Shown piece after piece: positions 2,342 through 61,464 of a DNA stretch of 64,000 nt. A program made the translations under genes and the position numbers. Under the pieces are notes generated by a model. That model ran no database searches. It had not been told where the DNA came from and saw nothing but the letters and a program-made list of their open reading frames with translations. The first letter of the stretch is position 1; every line of letters begins with the position of its first letter. The stretch is taken from positions 1-64,000 of the IMG/VR virus record IMGVR_UViG_3300040801_003999; one strand, given 5' to 3'. This DNA comes from a virus.

Positions 2342-2405
2342 GTTCGCTCTCCGGTCAGTTGTCGTCATCGTCGGACATCAAGATGATGTCGCCTGCGTCA
2401 AGAGT

Positions 2406-2433
2406 ATTATAGCAGGCTGGTCGATGCTGTCAA
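2406..2433 (-). promoter_or_regulatory. sigma70-like promoter
   Basis: Minus strand TTGACA-16-TATAAT, TGc extended -10. The spacer contains TCGACCAG. Confidence 0.65.
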
Positions 2434-2442
2434 GGGATAATC

Positions 2443-2655
2443 TTAACTATCTCGTCGAGGCAGCAGGTCGACGAACTCGGTGTACTGGTCGCTGGGCTGG
2501 TCGACCTTTGCCCGATACTCGAAGTCCTGTTCGTCCCATGACTCAGTGGTCATGATGTCCATGGCAGTGTTGCAGCAGAATGGTGTGCTCTGGTCGTCGG
2601 TGACCATCTGGCCTGCTCCACAGTGTCGGCATTCCATGCGCGAGATAACAATCAT
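2443..2655 (-). CDS. small Cys-containing protein (zinc-ribbon-like)
   Basis: 70 aa, CRHCG...FCC. GGAGCAGCT-ATG RBS. Promoter 2706..2733 lies upstream. Confidence 0.55.
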   Translation of the reverse strand: MIVISRMECRHCGAGQMVTDDQSTPFCCNTAMDIMTTESWDEQDFEYRAKVDQPSDQYTEFVDLLPRRDS

Positions 2656-2705
2656 AGCTGCTCCGGGTTCATCGAGTTCTGGGCCATTCCCTCATCGACA
2701 AGTGC

Positions 2706-2733
2706 ATAATAGCAGATACTGGTCGACAGTCAA
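2706..2733 (-). promoter_or_regulatory. sigma70-like promoter
   Basis: Minus strand TTGACT-16-TATTAT, TGc, A-tract upstream, CTTGTCGATGAGG box downstream. The spacer contains TCGACCAG. Confidence 0.6.
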
Positions 2734-2759
2734 GAGGTTTTTTCTTTTTCTTTGTTGTT

Positions 2760-3200
2760 TTGTTTATGGTTGATTATGGTTGACACTGGAACACTTCTGT
2801 GCTAAGCATAATTCCTTTCTCGTATAGGGACCAAAAACATTAAGTTGTTGTTTTTCCTTGACTTTCTTTTTTAAGTGTGTTAAGTGAAATTAGCACAGAT
2901 TATGCTTGACATGGTTCAATTATCGTGATATGCGGGATTTATGGTTGATTCTTGGTTGATAACTGGTCGATTCTTGCTTGATTCTTGGTCGATTATGCTT
3001 GACAACTGGTCGATTCTCGTGATATGTGGGATTTATGGTCGATTCTTGGTTGATTATGCTTGACAACTGGTCGATTCTGTGCTCCTCAGGATATATCCTC
3101 CAGATTCCCCTTGACGGCTGTGCCATAGTGTGCTATATTCGTACAGTATTCGTGCATTTATCGTACATCCTTGGTGTTTTTTCTTGTATTTTGGTGTTTT
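2760..3200. repeat. non-coding iteron-like repeat region
   Basis: At least 11 copies of (A/C)TTGGT(T/C)GAT or ACTGGTCGAT. Three direct copies of GATTATGCTTGACA (2898, 2991, 3052), two of them 61 nt apart. No credible ORF. Confidence 0.8.
3111..3139 (+). promoter_or_regulatory. sigma70-like promoter on the plus strand (only one in the window)
   Basis: TTGACG-17-TATATT with TGc extended -10. Points rightward, antisense to the genes at 3206-3530. Confidence 0.55.
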
Positions 3201-3329
3201 GGTAGTCAAATAGCTCTGGTTTTTATACTAAGTTCGACCAGCCACGCACCATTCTCGCACAGGCGCTGTACATTAATTGTACAGGCAATGTACCAGCATC
3301 GTACACACTGTTGAACACAGGTCACACAC

Positions 3330-3530
3330 TCATATATCCATGGCACACTGATACTGACACCCTGAACAGCAAGTACAGACTCGATTAGAGCCACCAATTT
3401 CCTGAGCATAGGGACAGACATGAGGACTCTCGCCTCGTTGGTCACAGATCGGACAGACCGGCTCAGGATAGTGCTCGTCTGTATAGAGGACACGCTCGCC
3501 AACTCTCTGAATCTTCTTTTTATCAATCAT
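3330..3530 (-). CDS. small Cys-rich protein
   Basis: 66 aa, AAGGAGGTCTGGGA-ATG. Contains CPICD...CPY...CTCCSGCQYQC. Paralog of 3901..4140. Confidence 0.55.
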   Translation of the reverse strand: MIDKKKIQRVGERVLYTDEHYPEPVCPICDQRGESPHVCPYAQEIGGSNRVCTCCSGCQYQCAMDI

Positions 3531-3689
3531 TCCCAGACCTCCTTGACGCGTTCAATCACCAGAGGGCCCAAATACCCATCATCATCATACCAGTCCCACA
3601 CCATTCTCGCACAGGCGCTGTACATTCATGGTACAGCCACTATACCAACATCGTTCGCACTGTTGAACACCCACATCACACACTCTCAC

Positions 3690-3890
3690 TCACCCAACAT
3701 ACTCGAAGAGACACCAGTTGTAACTGTAAAGCTTTTGTTTCCTTACCGGGTTACCTCTTCTATCATGCGTTATCCTGACATGTGCGATACATCCAGCAGT
3801 GGGATGAAGTGTATAATCCTCGATGATACCAGTCCAACGTGCTTTGTATAGAGACCGAACCCGACGCCCAATAACAGGTCTCTTCTTCAT
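3690..3890 (-). CDS. hypothetical protein (66 aa)
   Basis: GAGGAGAGTGCT-ATG, MKKRPVIGRRVRSLYKARW... The upstream part of track ORF 3690..4142 overlaps the Cys-rich gene. Confidence 0.6.
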   Translation of the reverse strand: MKKRPVIGRRVRSLYKARWTGIIEDYTLHPTAGCIAHVRITHDRRGNPVRKQKLYSYNWCLFEYVG

Positions 3891-3900
3891 AGCACTCTCC

Positions 3901-4140
3901 TCAGTCTTCACTCTTCGCAGCACAGGCATCGCACAGGTCTGGACTATCATCAGCAGCGCCCACACACCAAGGATTGTACTGACCACAGCCAGAGCAGCAC
4001 CACATCCGACACGGGTTACTGCTGAATGGCTTCTGACACTTGCCCTGTACATCACACGGGCATGGGACACTCTTTGGTTTGTAGCCGTGGTGGTTCGCTT
4101 CGAGAAGACCGGTCGGGATAAAAACCTCGCTGACAAGCAC
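3901..4140 (-). CDS. small Cys-rich protein, paralog of 3330..3530 (start uncertain)
   Basis: Contains CPCD...CRMWCCSGCGQYNPWC...CDAC. The track start lies inside the -10 of promoter 4141..4169, so the true start is downstream (GAGG then ATC?). Confidence 0.45.
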   Translation of the reverse strand: MLVSEVFIPTGLLEANHHGYKPKSVPCPCDVQGKCQKPFSSNPCRMWCCSGCGQYNPWCVGAADDSPDLCDACAAKSED

Positions 4141-4169
4141 ATTATGCCAGACTATCGCTCAGCTGTCAA
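4141..4169 (-). promoter_or_regulatory. sigma70-like promoter
   Basis: Minus strand TTGACA-17-CATAAT, TGg. Confidence 0.5.
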
Positions 4170-5204: not shown

Positions 5205-5242
5205 GCTCTTTCTCCTGTGCGTGTTCCCTCATCGACAAGAAC

Positions 5243-5270
5243 ATTATAGCAGCTTGTCGGTCGGTGTCAA
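5243..5270 (-). promoter_or_regulatory. sigma70-like promoter
   Basis: Minus strand TTGACA-16-TATAAT, TGc, A-tract, CTTGTCGATGAGGGAAC box. Confidence 0.7.
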
Positions 5271-5330
5271 GAGGTTTTTTTCAACTTTCTTCGTCGGCCT
5301 TTTTCAACGACCTCTCCCAGCGACAAGAGC

Positions 5331-5358
5331 ATAATAGCACACTGAGTCCTGACGTCAA
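5331..5358 (-). promoter_or_regulatory. sigma70-like promoter (tandem with 5243..5270)
   Basis: Minus strand TTGACG-16-TATTAT, TGc. Confidence 0.55.
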
Positions 5359-5525
5359 GGACTTTCTTTTATTTTTTTATGTTCTTTTTTTCTCTTGACA
5401 TATCGTCGAGAGTGTGTCACGCGCCTGCGCGCGCTCATTTAAAGGCACAGGAGTGGTCGATCTTGTCGCACTTCATTGACGACTGGTCGAGAATTGTGCT
5501 CGCGGGCGTCGGCATTGCCTTTCAG

Positions 5526-5787
5526 CTAGTGGGTGCCTTCGCAGTAAGGGCAGAAGTTCTCTGCTTCGAATTCGACCAGTTCGATCTCGAATTCGAGATT
5601 CGAGATGGCATCTTCAACCATCGAAGATGCTTCTTCGAGGCTCGAAAGCGCCGGCTGATTTCGCTGGACGCTTCCCAGTAAATGCCGGCCATTTCTTCGA
5701 GCAGGCGATGTTCATTTCGCGCTCTCCGATTCAGCCAGTGAGGAATTGGAATTCTTCGAGTCGGCTTCGTTTTTCTTCAATCGTCAT
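5526..5787 (-). pseudogene. frameshifted small gene (three consecutive frames)
   Basis: MTIEEKRSRLEEFQFLTG*, then ..NEHRLLEEMAGIYWEASSEISRR.., then ..LSSLEEASSMVEDAISNLEFEIELVEFEAENFCPYCEGTH*. Each protein-like stretch is -1 relative to the previous one. Confidence 0.35.
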
Positions 5788-5881
5788 GGTGTTTCCTCCG
5801 GTTATGCTCAGATGGTTGTGGGTTCGTCTGCGATGCAGTTGGCGATGTCGGGCATGTACTCGACGTCGAAGTGGACGTGAA

Positions 5882-5909
5882 ATTATAACAGGCTTTCTGG
5901 TGTTGTCAA
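5882..5909 (-). promoter_or_regulatory. sigma70-like promoter
   Basis: Minus strand TTGACA-16-TATAAT, TGt. Confidence 0.65.
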
Positions 5910-7707: not shown

Positions 7708-7868
7708 CTCTTACTCCTGCATGTGTCGTCGTCGTAGAATCCGAGAATATCAGACAAAGTGGTGACTGTCAAGAAGATTGTTGCAAAGAGCAGACCGAAA
7801 TCAAGAACAGGTCGCTGAAAAGCAATTAAAAGAACGAAGGTCAAATAGACGTAAATGGTTGTATTCAT
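7704..7868 (-). CDS. small hydrophobic protein (54 aa)
   Basis: GGCGAGAGGT-ATG, MNTTIYVYLTFVLLIAFQRPVLDFGLLFATIFL... ATGA overlap with the next gene. Below the track cutoff. Confidence 0.45.
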   Translation of the reverse strand: MNTTIYVYLTFVLLIAFQRPVLDFGLLFATIFLTVTTLSDILGFYDDDTCRSKR

Positions 7869-7916
7869 ACCTCTCGCCATCCTGCCCTCTTTATTTGTTC
7901 CCTCATCGACAAGTGC

Positions 7917-7944
7917 ATTATAGCAGCTTTCCGGTCGCTGTCAA
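7917..7944 (-). promoter_or_regulatory. sigma70-like promoter
   Basis: Minus strand TTGACA-16-TATAAT, TGc, A-tract, CTTGTCGATGAGGGAAC box. Confidence 0.7.
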
Positions 7945-8028
7945 GCGGTTTTTTATTTTTTATGTTGTTTTTTCGTGCCTTCTAAGTTCGAGCTACGTCT
8001 CCGATAGATATGCCATCGAGATATAAAT

Positions 8029-8056
8029 TGATTATAGTAACATCTCAGCAGTTGTC
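8029..8056 (-). promoter_or_regulatory. sigma70-like promoter (tandem with 7917..7944)
   Basis: Minus strand TTGACA-16-TATAAT. Confidence 0.6.
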
Positions 8057-8116
8057 AAGGACTTTCTTCTCTTTCTTTGTTCCCGTCCTGTCTCCACGGC
8101 ACCGTTTCGACCCAAA

Positions 8117-8419
8117 TTAAGTGTTGGACTGCTCGACGAGCACTGTGCCATTCTGCTCGACATCATCGCGCGTCAGATGACCAATACCCAGCCGCTCGAC
8201 GGTCTGTTCCCAACTCTCGCCAGCTTGTGACATTGTACCAGCACACCAGCGACCTGTCAAGTTGTTTGTGATGCCGACATAGCCAGAGGCATGAACAGAT
8301 ACCTTAAAGCTATTGCCAAAGCGGTTGAACACCTTGTATACTTCGTAGTGGTCATGGGAAGATCTGGGGCTGTATGGGCCAGTGTACTCGACGACTTCTG
8401 CTCTTGGGTACTTGCTCAT
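8117..8419 (-). CDS. hypothetical protein
   Basis: 100-aa co-oriented ORF downstream of promoter 8455..8482. Confidence 0.65.
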   Translation of the reverse strand: MSKYPRAEVVEYTGPYSPRSSHDHYEVYKVFNRFGNSFKVSVHASGYVGITNNLTGRWCAGTMSQAGESWEQTVERLGIGHLTRDDVEQNGTVLVEQSNT

Positions 8420-8868: not shown

Positions 8869-8919
8869 AGCTTCCTCGCTCGGTTATCTCTCATCGACAA
8901 GAGTATTAATTGACATCAG

Positions 8920-9288: not shown

Positions 9289-9503
9289 GAGGTTTTTTCT
9301 TTTCTTTGCCACATAACGTGCACTGGTGGTGCATAACCCTTCTCACCTTCAACAAAAATGGCGAAGAATAGCGAGACCATAGACGATAAACCACCATCGT
9401 ACATCCAATAATGCGAACAATTTAGATCTCGCCAAGGATCGTACAAATACACGCCATTTATACTAGAATTGACCGGGTATGCTTTAGAATTGCGTCTAAT
9501 CAT
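9285..9503 (-). CDS. hypothetical protein
   Basis: 72-aa co-oriented ORF filling the gap. Its 3' end overlaps promoter 9261..9288. Confidence 0.4.
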   Translation of the reverse strand: MIRRNSKAYPVNSSINGVYLYDPWRDLNCSHYWMYDGGLSSMVSLFFAIFVEGEKGYAPPVHVMWQRKEKTS

Positions 9504-10756
9504 CAGAGCACCGTCACTCGGTTCACCTTAGTCTGCTTCTCGCCCTCGTACTGATCATGGTCTTTGATGGTCGCCTTGATGCGAGCGCTCTCGCCCACCG
9601 TGAGGTCAGCAGGGCTGCTCGTGAACCATGTCAGGATGTCGCCCTGCTCGGTGACAAACTTCATGAGCGTCGTGAGGCCATAGTATCCCTCGAAGCTCGT
9701 GCAGAATTCAAGAGTAACATCGAACTCCATGCGCTGCTTAGGCTCTCCGACCCACTCAGAGGCACGCTCAGCCATTTCTTCTGCCCGACGCTCAGCCTTG
9801 TGCTCGCGCTCGGCTCGGATGCGTGCAGCAGGGATTGCAGCGGCCACCAGACCCATTTCCTTGTGAGTGATGAACTCTCGCTCAAGCGCAGCGATGAGAT
9901 TGAACTCAAAATTGTTGCTCGGCTTGATGTCTTCAAGAAGAGTGTTGCGAAGGTCAACTGCCTCTGCACGCTTATCGACGATTGCATCCTCGGCCGAGGC
10001 GAAACTTTTAAACTCAGGGAAGCCCTGAAGTTTCCCGTCAGGCTGACGGCGGCCGGCTGCAAGGTTCACAAGCAGGTGTCCGGCAAGGTCGGCCGTAGCA
10101 TTGTCACCAGTGGCCTTAGAACGACTCAGAAAACCACCTTCGATGTCGCAAATAACCAAGCAGGTCGCAAGGAAGTCGACAATGGGCCATGCAGTGGGCA
10201 CAGATGAGCCAAGAGTCTCCCGCTCATCCCAACTTTGGACCAACTCGACGATAGCCGTGGCCTTGCTCGCGAGAGTCGCAATGTCCTTCGGGATAAAGTC
10301 TTTGAGACATGTCGAGCCAACCTGCATGCTGTGGGAGTCCTCGTCACGGATGACGTAGACGTCGTGGCGCTCTCGGTTGTGGCCGCAATGGTCGCAGGCC
10401 GTAACATCACCCTGACGCCACGAGAGAAGCTCGTCCTCGGTCACTTGGTCGTTGACCGCGTGGATGATGGGCGAGGCATGGCTGCAATCAATCTTGGCCA
10501 CCACCTGCCAGCCATCGACGAATGGGGCAACGCCCTCAAGCACGTAGTTAACAAAGGTCTTTCTGACTTTCTTTGGAATGTTGCTGGTGCCGCTCAGGAC
10601 GGTGACCTCGGCGACATATGGCTCGCCGAAACTGACCGATACACCGGGAAGGTCGAGCTTTGCAGCAGTCTTGTTCAGGTCCTTGACCATCTCGTTGAGA
10701 CGTCCGGTCATCCATGCGAGGCATCGGCCTGTGAGCTTGGTAGCTTCGTTGTTCAT
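9503..10756 (-). CDS. hypothetical protein (417 aa) with CxxC...C cluster
   Basis: MNNEATKLTGRC..., CDHCGHNRERHDVYVIRDEDSHSMQVGSTC. Start set to the first ATG after promoter 10795..10822. Confidence 0.7.
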   Translation of the reverse strand: MNNEATKLTGRCLAWMTGRLNEMVKDLNKTAAKLDLPGVSVSFGEPYVAEVTVLSGTSNIPKKVRKTFVNYVLEGVAPFVDGWQVVAKIDCSHASPIIHAVNDQVTEDELLSWRQGDVTACDHCGHNRERHDVYVIRDEDSHSMQVGSTCLKDFIPKDIATLASKATAIVELVQSWDERETLGSSVPTAWPIVDFLATCLVICDIEGGFLSRSKATGDNATADLAGHLLVNLAAGRRQPDGKLQGFPEFKSFASAEDAIVDKRAEAVDLRNTLLEDIKPSNNFEFNLIAALEREFITHKEMGLVAAAIPAARIRAEREHKAERRAEEMAERASEWVGEPKQRMEFDVTLEFCTSFEGYYGLTTLMKFVTEQGDILTWFTSSPADLTVGESARIKATIKDHDQYEGEKQTKVNRVTVL

Positions 10757-10794
10757 CGTGTATCTCGTGCGCTGTGTTCCCGTTGACAAGAACA

Positions 10795-10822
10795 ATAATA
10801 GCAGCTATTCAGAGATTGTCAA
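10795..10822 (-). promoter_or_regulatory. sigma70-like promoter
   Basis: Minus strand TTGACA-16-TATTAT, TGc, A-tract. Confidence 0.65.
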
Positions 10823-10896
10823 GAACTTTTTTCTTTTTTGTTCACGACAATAACATGGACTTGTTTCGTGCCTGACCATCGCATAAAGCTCAGCAA

Positions 10897-11163
10897 TCAG
10901 TGTCCGTAGTTACAGCCAATCCGGAAAGTGTAGCCAGCGACTCGTACCTGTGCCTCGTGAGAGCCACAACAACCATCGCGGCGAGCCTGTTCATAATCCT
11001 CTTCTTGGTCCTTCTGGCCGACCTGTGCGAGCCTGAAGTTGTCTATGTAAAACAACTCTCGCTGCATATACTTAACCTCTTTGTGCAACATTTTCCGAAT
11101 CTGTTTCTTCTTCGGATGGTCTGCGAAGTGTTCGTCAAGGTATTCATCAACAAAACACATCAT
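10897..11163 (-). CDS. hypothetical protein (88 aa)
   Basis: TAAGGAGAAAAGCA-ATGATG. The upstream part of track ORF 10897..11313 overlaps the tRNA-like element. Confidence 0.6.
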   Translation of the reverse strand: MMCFVDEYLDEHFADHPKKKQIRKMLHKEVKYMQRELFYIDNFRLAQVGQKDQEEDYEQARRDGCCGSHEAQVRVAGYTFRIGCNYGH

Positions 11164-11217
11164 TGCTTTTCTCCTTATGGCAAGGTGTCGGTCAGTGTCA
11201 AGCAGTTTCTTATTGTA

Positions 11218-11312
11218 GTGGCGATGCAGGATTCGAACCTGTCGTCTCTTTATAACGGTCTCGACTAAGACCTCCCGATGGGTTTTTCCTGTTGGGACCC
11301 ACTCCCTCACCA
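11218..11312 (-). ncRNA. tRNA-like element (not a canonical tRNA)
   Basis: Minus strand ACAGG-TTCGAAT-CCTGC T-arm. 6/7-bp acceptor-like helix TGGTGAG/ATCGCCA. Hairpin GGTCT-TAGTCG-AGACC has only a 6-nt loop. 95 nt, and G instead of U at position 8. Confidence 0.4.
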
Positions 11313-11668
11313 AACACCACCTGATTCGCCGGTGGTCCGCTAAAGCAAAGATTCATCCTGACTACGACGGTTGCTGAAGCCATTTCGTTTCGGGTTGACT
11401 TTGCTGAAATGCCCGCTTAGATTAGCGTGTCAGCGGGCGAACACGAATAATAGCAATGTAAAGTGTAGACCTCTCGATGAATCATCCATCCATCATCCAT
11501 TCTCATCGAGGCCGGTGTTACCCGGCGCGGTCATCATGATATCTCCTGAGCTTAAGTTTTAGGTTGTCTACAATACCACCCACGCGGCGAGGGTCATGGT
11601 CATACTTAACCGGGCGGTGCTCGTGGCATCCTTACCTCTTTGGTTGTGTATGGCGTATCGTGAACTAC

Positions 11669-11697
11669 ATTATAGTACCAAACCTCACACTCGTCAA
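11669..11697 (-). promoter_or_regulatory. sigma70-like promoter reading into the non-coding locus
   Basis: Minus strand TTGACG-17-TATAAT. No ORF longer than about 27 codons in the following 450 nt. Confidence 0.6.
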
Positions 11698-11718
11698 GTC
11701 ACTTTCACATTTTTTACC

Positions 11719-11985
11719 TCACATTCGAAGATAGTTGTAGAGCTTCATCTGCTGGGAAGGGTCACCTTTCGCGGCCTCTCCCACTGCACATACCATTATA
11801 GCGAGGTCCGCTTGTGTTGTCAAGAAGAAAATTTTCTTTTCTTTGCGAGCATGAGCGAAAAGGTCACTGACAATGGGCAAGCACCGATACTGGTACTGCT
11901 CACTATAGGCCATAGAATACTTCTTGACAGCCAGAGCGGTCATCTCAGCCTGTTCTTTAGTGAACGCGATAGCAACCTCAGTCAT
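11719..11985 (-). CDS. hypothetical protein
   Basis: MTEVAIAFTKEQAEMTALAVKKYS... Abuts the stop of 11987..12253. Confidence 0.6.
   Translation of the reverse strand: MTEVAIAFTKEQAEMTALAVKKYSMAYSEQYQYRCLPIVSDLFAHARKEKKIFFLTTQADLAIMVCAVGEAAKGDPSQQMKLYNYLRM
11795..11823 (-). promoter_or_regulatory. sigma70-like promoter internal to a CDS
   Basis: Minus strand TTGACA-17-TATAAT inside 11719..11985. Confidence 0.5.
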
Positions 11986-11986
11986 A

Positions 11987-12253
11987 TTATTTCTCGGTGA
12001 AGAACTTGCTGGTTGGTCCCTCGGAATCGATGTGGCCACAGTCCACAGCCCGCTCCAGATTCAAGAGAGCAGAGACGTCGCTGTCGTAAAGCCGCCACTC
12101 GCGAATATCGAACGTATCATGTGAGGTCCCGGCACCATCAGCAGTAAACCAGTACTGGAGGGGCTCGTCGAACCAGTCAGACTTGTATGTGTGATAGATG
12201 GTGGTCGTCGGTGATTTATAGGCTACTTCTGGCTCTACCCATTTATATGGCAT
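11987..12253 (-). CDS. hypothetical protein
   Basis: 88-aa co-oriented ORF downstream of promoter 12284..12311. Confidence 0.65.
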   Translation of the reverse strand: MPYKWVEPEVAYKSPTTTIYHTYKSDWFDEPLQYWFTADGAGTSHDTFDIREWRLYDSDVSALLNLERAVDCGHIDSEGPTSKFFTEK

Positions 12254-12283
12254 TTATATCCTCTACGTGTTGTTGACAAGTAC

Positions 12284-12311
12284 ATTGTAGCAGATTCTCA
12301 GGCCCTGTCAA
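12284..12311 (-). promoter_or_regulatory. sigma70-like promoter
   Basis: Minus strand TTGACA-16-TACAAT, TGc, A-tract. Confidence 0.65.
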
Positions 12312-12319
12312 GCACTTTT

Positions 12320-12604
12320 TTAATCTTTGTTTGTTGTGAACTCCAGCCAGATAGTAGCATCTCCCGTCGAGTGTAGTCCGAAGTCGAATACTCCCACTTC
12401 GTCATTAAGCATGCTGATCAACTGGTCGACTCTGAGTACCTTGCGGCCATTTGAATCGACGAGATCGACCTTCAGAAAGCCAGTCAGACCGAGAGTCTTC
12501 GATAGCTCGACATCAGCGAAGTGAACTTCGTCATACCCACACGAGTCGGCGATACCAGCGCAGGCATCAAGAATATCAGACATGTCAATCATAAACTCGG
12601 TCAT
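12320..12604 (-). CDS. hypothetical protein, paralog of 6596..6886
   Basis: 94 aa. Shares the DMS.IL..C.G.AD.CGY ... FGLHST.DA.IWLEF pattern with 6596..6886. Confidence 0.65.
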   Translation of the reverse strand: MTEFMIDMSDILDACAGIADSCGYDEVHFADVELSKTLGLTGFLKVDLVDSNGRKVLRVDQLISMLNDEVGVFDFGLHSTGDATIWLEFTTNKD

Positions 12605-12803
12605 TGTCCCTCACTGAACTTGTGTAAATAACTTCGGAATCCTTGATGCAGATACACTCGTTCTGGTAGTGCGTTGGTGTGGCATCGAGAGCGCGACAGA
12701 CTGCTTGACAATCTTCTTTTTGGCTTTCGACAATCGAGTACATAAGGAGCACTGTCGATACAAATGTGCCGCCCACGAGGGCTATTAAATGCCACTTCTC
12801 CAT
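12585..12803 (-). CDS. small membrane protein with Cys cluster
   Basis: AGGAGACATGAG-ATG. MEKWHLIALVGGTFVSTVLLMYSIV (TM), then CQAVC...CIC. Confidence 0.55.
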   Translation of the reverse strand: MEKWHLIALVGGTFVSTVLLMYSIVESQKEDCQAVCRALDATPTHYQNECICIKDSEVIYTSSVRDNDRVYD

Positions 12804-12813
12804 CTCATGTCTC

Positions 12814-13023
12814 CTAGAGTCGGTGTGAACTCGGCTTAATTTCGAACTTCTGCTCGTCAACCGGGACTTCGACGTCCTCGCGGCACAGATACTTCTCTCG
12901 CTCAGCGCGAGCATCCATCTCCCGCTTGGGAGCGAAGCGGCCATCATAGTAGCCCTGCTCTCGCGAAAGCTCACGACGTGCACTTCGCTGCATCTCACGA
13001 ATATCTTCTTTGGTGATACGCAT
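12814..13023 (-). CDS. hypothetical basic protein
   Basis: GAGGAAAAGATC-ATG, MRITKEDIREMQRSARRELSREQGYYDGR... Confidence 0.55.
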   Translation of the reverse strand: MRITKEDIREMQRSARRELSREQGYYDGRFAPKREMDARAEREKYLCREDVEVPVDEQKFEIKPSSHRL

Positions 13024-19312: not shown

Positions 19313-19467
19313 GATCAAGCCTCGCGAGGAGCAGGCATGGGAAACGTTAATGATAAAGCTCTCGATGAATCATCCACTCATCATCCATTTCTATAATTCT
19401 AAATGTATTTCAAAAACACGCGCCAGTCCAAGCATCAGACCAATTGAATAGAATATAGGAATTACAA

Positions 19468-19713
19468 TCAGCCGCCCCATCTTTCCTCCAATACTTGTCG
19501 TCGACGTTCGGCCTCAGCCCACCAACTCGACGAGTCTATATCAGGATGGGTGCGATTGTCAAATTGTTTTCCGGTTCGCACATAAAAAATGAACATCGTT
19601 AAGTCTTCACGGGCTTCGAATGGAATATTGTGACCGAAGACTGGCATTGGCCGTGTGCGCTCCAGAATCGCTGTCAGTTCCGAGACAGTGGCCGACTCAA
19701 TCCTACCAACCAT
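19468..19713 (-). CDS. hypothetical protein
   Basis: MVGRIESATVSELTAILERTRPMPVFGHNIPFEARED... The start overlaps the end of 19703..19903. Confidence 0.55.
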   Translation of the reverse strand: MVGRIESATVSELTAILERTRPMPVFGHNIPFEAREDLTMFIFYVRTGKQFDNRTHPDIDSSSWWAEAERRRQVLEERWGG

Positions 19714-61415: not shown

Positions 61416-61464
61416 AAGCAGATGGGGGAATCGAACCCCCTTAGAAATTCCCAAAATATCTGCT
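61416..61464 (-). other. tRNA-like acceptor/T-arm minihelix or intergenic hairpin
   Basis: Minus strand AGCAGAT-17nt-GGGGG-TTCGATT-CCCCC-ATCTGCT-T. 7-bp outer stem, 5-bp stem with a T-loop-like 7-mer, then TTTCT. Confidence 0.35.

Follow-up and report, generated by a model that had tools for sequence, protein, structure and literature searches.

A 555-nt gap on the minus strand of a large phage's early region (11164-11718), lying between two real small genes, holds a promoter that we have good evidence to think is active and a tRNA-type T-arm that is clearly non-random. The reading we prefer, and hold with about even confidence, is that the gap is a transcribed early leader put together from decayed copies of an early module that the phage repeats, along with a fragment of a tRNA gene. 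Because its tRNA-like end amounts to little more than one leftover arm, the locus looks like a decayed module leader and not like a tRNA mimic. An earlier note, made from the DNA sequence, had seen a non-coding RNA with a tRNA-like end here; part of what it observed is confirmed and part of its interpretation is supported.

Setting and transcription of the gap

The window, the whole 64,000-nucleotide stretch that we analyzed, covers positions 1-64000 of an IMG/VR virus record that is 192,483 bp long and carries direct terminal repeats. The phage genome contains at least 25 tRNA genes, and the 23 called by ARAGORN are on the minus strand without exception. By a crude gene call the genome is ~93% coding, and the gap ranks among its five largest. 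Upstream, a minus-strand 88-aa gene ends at 11719. Downstream lies another 88-aa gene (10897..11163, minus strand), whose ATG at 11163 stands behind AAGGAG. We judge this downstream gene to be genuine on the strength of a match to phrog_33577, homologues in phages of Pseudomonas, Edwardsiella and Enterobacter, and 91%-identical variants (P0001 and P0004) in Logan assemblies.

The phage appears to have no close cultured relative, as its ribonucleotide reductase reaches at best ~42% identity to that of a cultured phage and a neighbouring 430-aa protein is ~31% identical to those of KVP40-like Vibrio phages. The locus had no blastn match among 50,697 GenBank phages, and the flanking 430-aa and 88-aa proteins found no relatives in IMG/VR, JGI metagenomes or GTDB genomes. 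Public DNA runs of a microbial mat sample and of a marine plankton sample did contain the locus, as did two metatranscriptome runs of the mat sample, which is probably the source of the phage. The plankton run (X2) yielded a contig from a 97%-identical relative that carries no indels within the locus. Among the substitutions listed for this relative, 40 fall at 9793-10085 within the 430-aa gene (phrog_2319), which appears to be a hypervariable patch, and the other 2.9 kb differ by ~2%; two compensating pairs of 1-nt indels occur at 10595/10597 and 10660/10664. Elsewhere in the early region, a crude coding-potential caller found no gene in the large stretches 2369-4168, 5205-5908 and 7708-8119, which may hold small genes of atypical codon usage or more non-coding units.

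Both consensus promoters that the earlier note placed at the head of the unit are present on the minus strand, and both are of the sigma-70 type. The upstream one (11795..11823, TTGACA-17-TATAAT, 12/12) lies within the 3' end of the upstream 88-aa gene and aligns with other early promoter cassettes of the phage; the second (11669..11697, TTGACG-17-TATAAT, 11/12) predicts a start near 11662. The surrounding 2-kb region has 6 promoter-like sites, compared with 1.9 in shuffled sequence.

RNA evidence came from the two metatranscriptome runs, which are small libraries from one sample. Across 9500-13000 each run contributed exactly one contig, both contigs were 100% identical to the phage, and both fell within the gap (11394-11581 in run X4, 11465-11665 in run X5). 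Thus, the 5' 270 nt, spanned at 11394..11665, are made as RNA. Neither the strand nor the true ends can be read from contigs, and the minus strand is taken from the promoter. The X5 contig ends at 11665, 4 nt past the -10 box (which ends at 11669) and ~3 nt from the predicted start, as expected if the 11669 promoter fires. Carry-over of DNA is argued against by the DNA run of the same mat sample, which covers 27 of the 30 bins of 9500-13000. We take this as good evidence for activity of the 11669 promoter and for a relatively high abundance of the first 270 nt of its transcript; that contigs from such small libraries fall only in this part suggests an unusually abundant or stable RNA. The contigs stop short of the tRNA-like part and of the flanks, which says nothing about absence of RNA there. 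Of the ~450-nt transcription unit described in the earlier note, which had named RNA-seq as a check, promoter-driven transcription is thus borne out by contigs from two runs with an end that fits the promoter, and the tRNA-like domain at its end is not.

A terminator scan called no intrinsic terminator on the minus strand between 10500 and 12500. It did not call the GC-rich hairpin at 11411..11438 (minus strand; 7 bp, a 14-nt loop, then AUUU), which is a possible weak 3' end; the left end of the X4 contig, at 11394, lies 17 nt beyond it. On the basis of the RNA contigs, we propose that the host's sigma-70 RNA polymerase uses the 11669 promoter and begins its transcript near 11662, and we infer that it reads ~500 nt, meeting no intrinsic terminator, into the downstream 88-aa gene.

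Probable relics of early modules, and reading frames

The early promoter cassettes of this phage are nearly identical: an A-tract, TTGACA, 17 nt, TATAAT, 7 nt and then a box, TCGATGAGG. Five such cassettes occur on the minus strand, with boxes at window positions 2698, 4582, 5235, 7909 and 8447, each box lying at the predicted transcript start. A sixth box, at 8897 on the same strand, has no cassette promoter in the 45 nt upstream. Four of the six box-bearing modules have a gene start 28-43 nt downstream of the box, and the remaining two have a long ORF that begins at the ATG of the box itself. The repeated early module consists of promoter cassette, leader box and small gene, and the gap could have been built from its decayed copies.

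One candidate remnant is a cassette at 11174..11201 (minus strand, TTGACA-16-CATAAG), which aligns base for base with the five canonical cassettes and fails the criteria of the promoter scan because its -10 has mutated to CATAAG. The old -10 is now part of the AAGGAG ribosome site of the downstream 88-aa gene. Judged by this alignment, the cassette is a clear case of promoter-to-ribosome-site re-use, in which the gene's promoter copy has died and its CATAAG been recruited. With its own promoter dead, the 88-aa gene probably relies on transcription coming through the gap, and it is probably the gap transcript that serves it.

A second candidate remnant is a box core at 11509 with no promoter upstream and no gene downstream. 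This core, TCGATGAG(G)AATGG, forms the 5' arm of the first hairpin in the gap, CTCGATGA ... TCATCGAG (11473..11510, minus strand), which is completed by an inverted partner. The 8-mer TCGATGAG has 18 copies in the genome, against ~6 expected. All four hairpins listed in the earlier note exist, but their folding energies carry no statistical weight (z from -0.1 to -1.0). Compared with dinucleotide shuffles, z was -0.26 for the 505-nt locus and -0.12 for the 272 nt seen as RNA; the tRNA-like part gave -0.98 and -1.00, so that every fold (505 nt, 272 nt and three versions of the tRNA-like part) lay within one standard deviation of the shuffles. Pairing of the gap RNA as an antisense to the early leaders was also no better than in shuffles (p = 0.24).

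Overlapping the first hairpin is a 31-nt element (11471..11501, minus strand) that recurs at 19359-19389 with 29 of 31 positions identical. By our reading of the sequences, the likeness of the two copies runs on across a 7-nt indel that breaks the frame, which points to a repeat conserved as nucleic acid and not as peptide. We considered whether its 18-nt core is a widespread motif and rejected this, since the core had only 2 matches in IMG/VR, judged to be at chance level and unlike in their flanks. The second copy falls within a stretch (19349-19476, minus strand) just upstream of the largest MORN-repeat gene and opens a 13-codon ORF; this ORF starts 2 nt past the stop of an ORF for a 29-codon hydrophobic peptide, MGRLIVIPIFYSIGLMLGLARVFEIHLEL, which has a GGAGG site.

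The earlier note had found no ORF above about 27 codons in the gap. This does not hold: a 57-codon ATG ORF (11210-11383) lies on the minus strand, and two ORFs, of 63 and 56 codons, lie on the plus strand. Together with a 29-codon ORF, the 57-codon ORF makes up a 98-codon frame (11210..11506, minus strand) interrupted by a single TAA at 11417-11419, and this frame is possibly the relic of a gene. Two shorter candidates lie upstream on the same strand, a putative micro-ORF of 7 codons (11606..11629) behind a GAGGT ribosome site and one of 14 codons (11493..11537). The latter has the best ribosome site, AGGAG with a 5-nt spacer; it lies upstream of the 98-codon frame and one base out of frame with it, and its stop overlaps the start of the next ORF. 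Such micro-ORFs with good ribosome sites may encode leader peptides or be the remains of lost genes.

Coding scores place the ORF pieces at about the 94th-95th percentile of spurious ORFs, under most real early genes. Searches gave them no relatives. The 57-codon ORF had no homologue in 5.8 billion clusters, none of the gap ORFs fell in a Pfam or PHROG family, and none of the full-length gap ORFs that we looked up was in a protein collection that does include the flanking genes of both the phage record and its 97%-identical relative. The 98-codon frame had a single match among 1.84 billion representatives, P0008, which we rejected as a tandem-repeat artefact. A six-frame tblastn against the phage's own genome returned only echoes of the promoter cassettes and the known 31-nt repeat.

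The tRNA-like segment

The T-arm, ACAGG-TTCGAAT-CCTGC, lies at 11226..11242 on the minus strand, and it shares 16 identical nucleotides with the T-arm of tRNA-Leu(UAG) from the same phage. Its stem has five positions on each side, and its 7-nt loop is of the TTCRANY type. The earlier note called this T-arm perfect, which is right for the loop, a canonical T-loop, but not for the stem, where an A.C mismatch leaves 4 Watson-Crick pairs. The arm is clearly not a random occurrence. An 11-mer within it, GGTTCGAATCC, has 11 copies in the genome, where 0.09 would be expected by chance; all are on the minus strand, ten are within tRNA genes, and the eleventh is the T-arm in the gap. This excess in tRNA genes indicates that the element derives from, or works like, a tRNA T-arm.

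The remaining sequence does not resemble a tRNA. The tRNA-like segment (11218..11330, minus strand) has alternative 5' ends at 11330, 11321, 11320 and 11313, and its 5' side is G/T-rich, which accounts for at least four alternative acceptor registers. An acceptor-like helix of the kind that the earlier note described can thus be drawn, but shuffling the upstream sequence also yields at least 6 of 7 pairs in 67% of cases. The best register pairs 7 of 7 with two G.U pairs (GGUGGUG/CAUCGCC), is reached in 7% of shuffles, and places U at positions 8-9 and A at the discriminator, with the T-stem then at 4 bp. The 8-nt complement that was suggested to close the whole RNA is likewise present (TATTGTAG at 11575-11568 and CTACAATA at 11218-11211, minus strand) and exceeds chance only marginally (p ~0.05). 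Each of the two helices is therefore marginal, at p ~0.07 and p ~0.05, and neither is clearly due to chance. Folds of 11330-11219 keep the closing stem and the T-arm in both the minimum-energy and the centroid structure. Among the candidate arms in the tRNA-like part, one loop is 13 nt long and another 6 or 8 nt; neither a D-stem or D-arm nor a 7-nt anticodon loop was found there, nor was an encoded CCA. No phage tRNA matches the segment past the shared T-arm and so could be named as donor of a relic, the 103 nt that precede the T-arm give poorer alignments with the tRNAs of the phage than shuffled sequence does, and the anticodon-like arm plus T-arm, used as a DNA pattern, had no match in IMG/VR.

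ARAGORN with default settings called neither a tRNA nor a tmRNA at the locus, and with a relaxed threshold it reached a tRNA call only by inventing a 16-nt intron. A scan with all 4227 Rfam families at E<=10 gave no tRNA, tmRNA, Y-RNA, RNase P, 6S or group I intron; the best match, in a 156-nt search, was to tRNA-Sec and reached 12.7 bits (E=5), where the gathering score is 47. The Intron_gpI model had no match at E<=10 in 10900-12100, and the phage's intron-split tRNA-Leu, a positive control, scored 42.2 bits (E=3e-9) with the same model. Two other non-canonical tRNAs of the phage that ARAGORN misses scored 34.1 and 38.8 bits with Rfam. The 34.1-bit one (L003:5015-5091, genome 170514-170590) is tRNA-Arg(UCU)-like, with a perfect acceptor stem and no normal D-arm. 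The other (L003:1181-1275, genome 166680-166774) is of Ser UGA type, with a long variable arm and the anticodon loop CTTGAAA, and its 38.8 bits for tRNA-Sec are below threshold. We found no CCA-adding enzyme gene in the phage genome and no Rsr/TROVE gene (PF05731) in the complete 192 kb, in a search that was positive for control genomes; the host itself may carry an rsr gene.

Two further orphan T-arm elements occur in the genome. At 61416-61464 on the minus strand, a tRNA-like minihelix has an acceptor-type stem of 7 perfect base pairs (AGCAGAT/ATCTGCT) that stacks in exact tRNA register on a T-arm of 5 bp (GGGGG-TTCGATT-CCCCC), with a 17-nt linker in place of the D and anticodon arms and TTTT directly after it; by a rough estimate the register would arise by chance at ~0.004, and it appears too exact for chance. 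The third element of the kind (L003:8451-8504, genome 173950-174003, minus strand) directly follows tRNA-Met in the tRNA cluster and has a 5-bp acceptor-like stem (GCCGA/TCGGC), a tRNA-Gln-like T-arm and no anticodon arm.

Alternative readings and significance

Under the leader reading, the T-arm would be a leftover of one of the many scattered minus-strand tRNA genes and not part of a working tRNA mimic, and the hairpins, acceptor helix and closing helix would be incidental. This reading fits the single RNA contig per run inside the gap, the lack of a minus-strand terminator across 10500-12500, the dead cassette at 11201-11174, the box at 11509 that has neither promoter nor gene, and the 98-codon frame with its one stop and borderline coding scores; it also fits the lack of a folding signal or an Rfam family and the unlikeness of the sequence upstream of the T-arm to phage tRNAs. 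Other observations pull against it. Uniform decay of a tRNA should have cost the T-loop too, whereas the loop is canonical and the rest unrecognisable, so decay by point mutation is insufficient and either rearrangement or selective retention is needed. The two further T-arm and acceptor minihelices (61416-61464 and L003:8451-8504) hint at selection, the 7/7 register and the closing 8-mer are marginal and not clearly chance, RNA confined to the 5' 270 nt fits a functional small RNA better than a plain leader, and read-through into the 88-aa gene is itself deduced.

The intact T-loop, the two further minihelices and the locus-restricted RNA lead us to keep a second explanation, which we consider unlikely: a functional non-coding early RNA of ~270-450 nt with the T-arm and acceptor-like helix at its 3' end. 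This module would be recognised by RNase P, RNase Z, TrmA/TruB or the CCA-adding enzyme of the host, and would act as a processing or stability signal at which leader and 88-aa mRNA are separated, or would be a decoy that lures tRNA-binding factors away. That an intact T-loop stands within otherwise non-tRNA sequence speaks for it, as do the 7/7 register with U at 8-9 and a discriminator A, the two folds that keep the closing stem and T-arm, and the perfect 7-bp acceptor stem on the T-arm at 61416-61464. It is opposed by contigs that miss the tRNA-like part, by the absence of a thermodynamic signal (z ~ -1), by a tRNA-clan score of 12.7 bits in Rfam, by the lack of an encoded CCA, a phage CCA-adding enzyme and an Rsr gene, and by the antisense result. 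In a more elaborate form that we regard as a long shot, the transcript is an abundant early RNA whose T-arm/acceptor module belongs to a small class of phage minihelices, used by host tRNA enzymes as punctuation or stability signals, or serving as decoys for tRNA-targeting defence factors. Its 5' part, with a copy and an inverted copy of the box common to at least six early transcripts, could then titrate a box-binding factor.

Alternatively, the transcript might be mRNA for micro-proteins, with the 14-codon ORF coupled to a 27-codon ORF (MDDGWMIHRE...), the 57-codon ORF perhaps translated and the T-arm being incidental coding sequence. We think this unlikely. The AGGAG 5 nt ahead of the ATG at 11537 and the overlap of that ORF's stop with the next start speak for it, in-frame scores of 0.010-0.062 per nt lie above the spurious mean of -0.031 and in the region of the ~0.015-0.05 of real early genes, and the peptide start MDD(G/E)WMIHRE(V/L)Y appears again at 19389. 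But the likeness around the 31-nt element crosses a frame-breaking indel, the 57-codon ORF has no ribosome site, and the database searches yielded no homologue, family or genuine match. A known tRNA-related family, whether YrlA/Y RNA, tmRNA, an intron-split tRNA or a true non-canonical tRNA, is very improbable. The locus does have a T-arm and a possible acceptor helix, in a phage that carries an intron-split tRNA-Leu and other non-canonical tRNAs, but the ARAGORN and Rfam results (with a control at 42 bits), the missing D-arm and 7-nt anticodon loop, and the absence of Rsr/TROVE largely refute these candidates. Thus, the Y-RNA/YrlA mimic and the tmRNA-related RNA that the earlier note offered as options both lack support, and its proposed Rfam check for tmRNA, Y RNA/YrlA, tRNA, RNase P and 6S turned up none of them.

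Among known systems, the locus under the leader reading resembles the long 5' leaders of phage early operons, with which it would share a strong sigma-70 promoter, a transcript that continues into a downstream gene and tiny ORFs with good ribosome sites; it differs from them in being unusually long (~500 nt) and made of relic promoter and leader-box modules. It also resembles the tRNA pseudogenes and fragments of tRNA-rich phages, in that it lies on the strand of every phage tRNA gene, has a canonical T-loop, shares 16 nt with the tRNA-Leu(UAG) T-arm and is missed by tRNA finders, although here the T-arm alone is recognisable and the 103 nt upstream show no tRNA similarity. YrlA and the bacterial Y RNAs, partners of Rsr/Ro60, likewise have a T-arm module enclosed by distant 5'/3' pairing. 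YrlA is roughly 110-130 nt in size, whereas the closing helix at our locus would enclose ~365 nt and is marginally above chance, the locus has no Y-RNA family match in Rfam, and the phage has no Rsr gene. Phage T4 makes two small stable RNAs of unknown function, species 1 and 2 (rnaC and rnaD), which are associated with tRNA genes, have tRNA-like termini and are processed by host tRNA enzymes. They are 120-140 nt long, lie inside the tRNA cluster and are proven to be stable; in the gap, by contrast, RNA was detected for the 5' 270 nt but not for the tRNA-like end. A literature search on phage tRNA-like minihelices and the T4 stable RNAs found nothing pertinent.

If the ordinary reading, that of a decayed leader, holds, the locus shows how the early region of a large phage evolves: cassettes of promoter, leader and gene duplicate and decay, a -10 box turns into a ribosome site, and a tRNA fragment is left stranded. 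This would be helpful for annotation and no surprise. What is unexpected is that a gene-poor stretch of a low-abundance phage was the only part of 3.5 kb to be assembled from two small metatranscriptomes. Should the transcript instead be stable and carry a tRNA-like handle, a phage would be added to the examples of tRNA-mimic RNAs that serve as punctuation or as decoys, and the other two minihelices in the genome would be worth testing.
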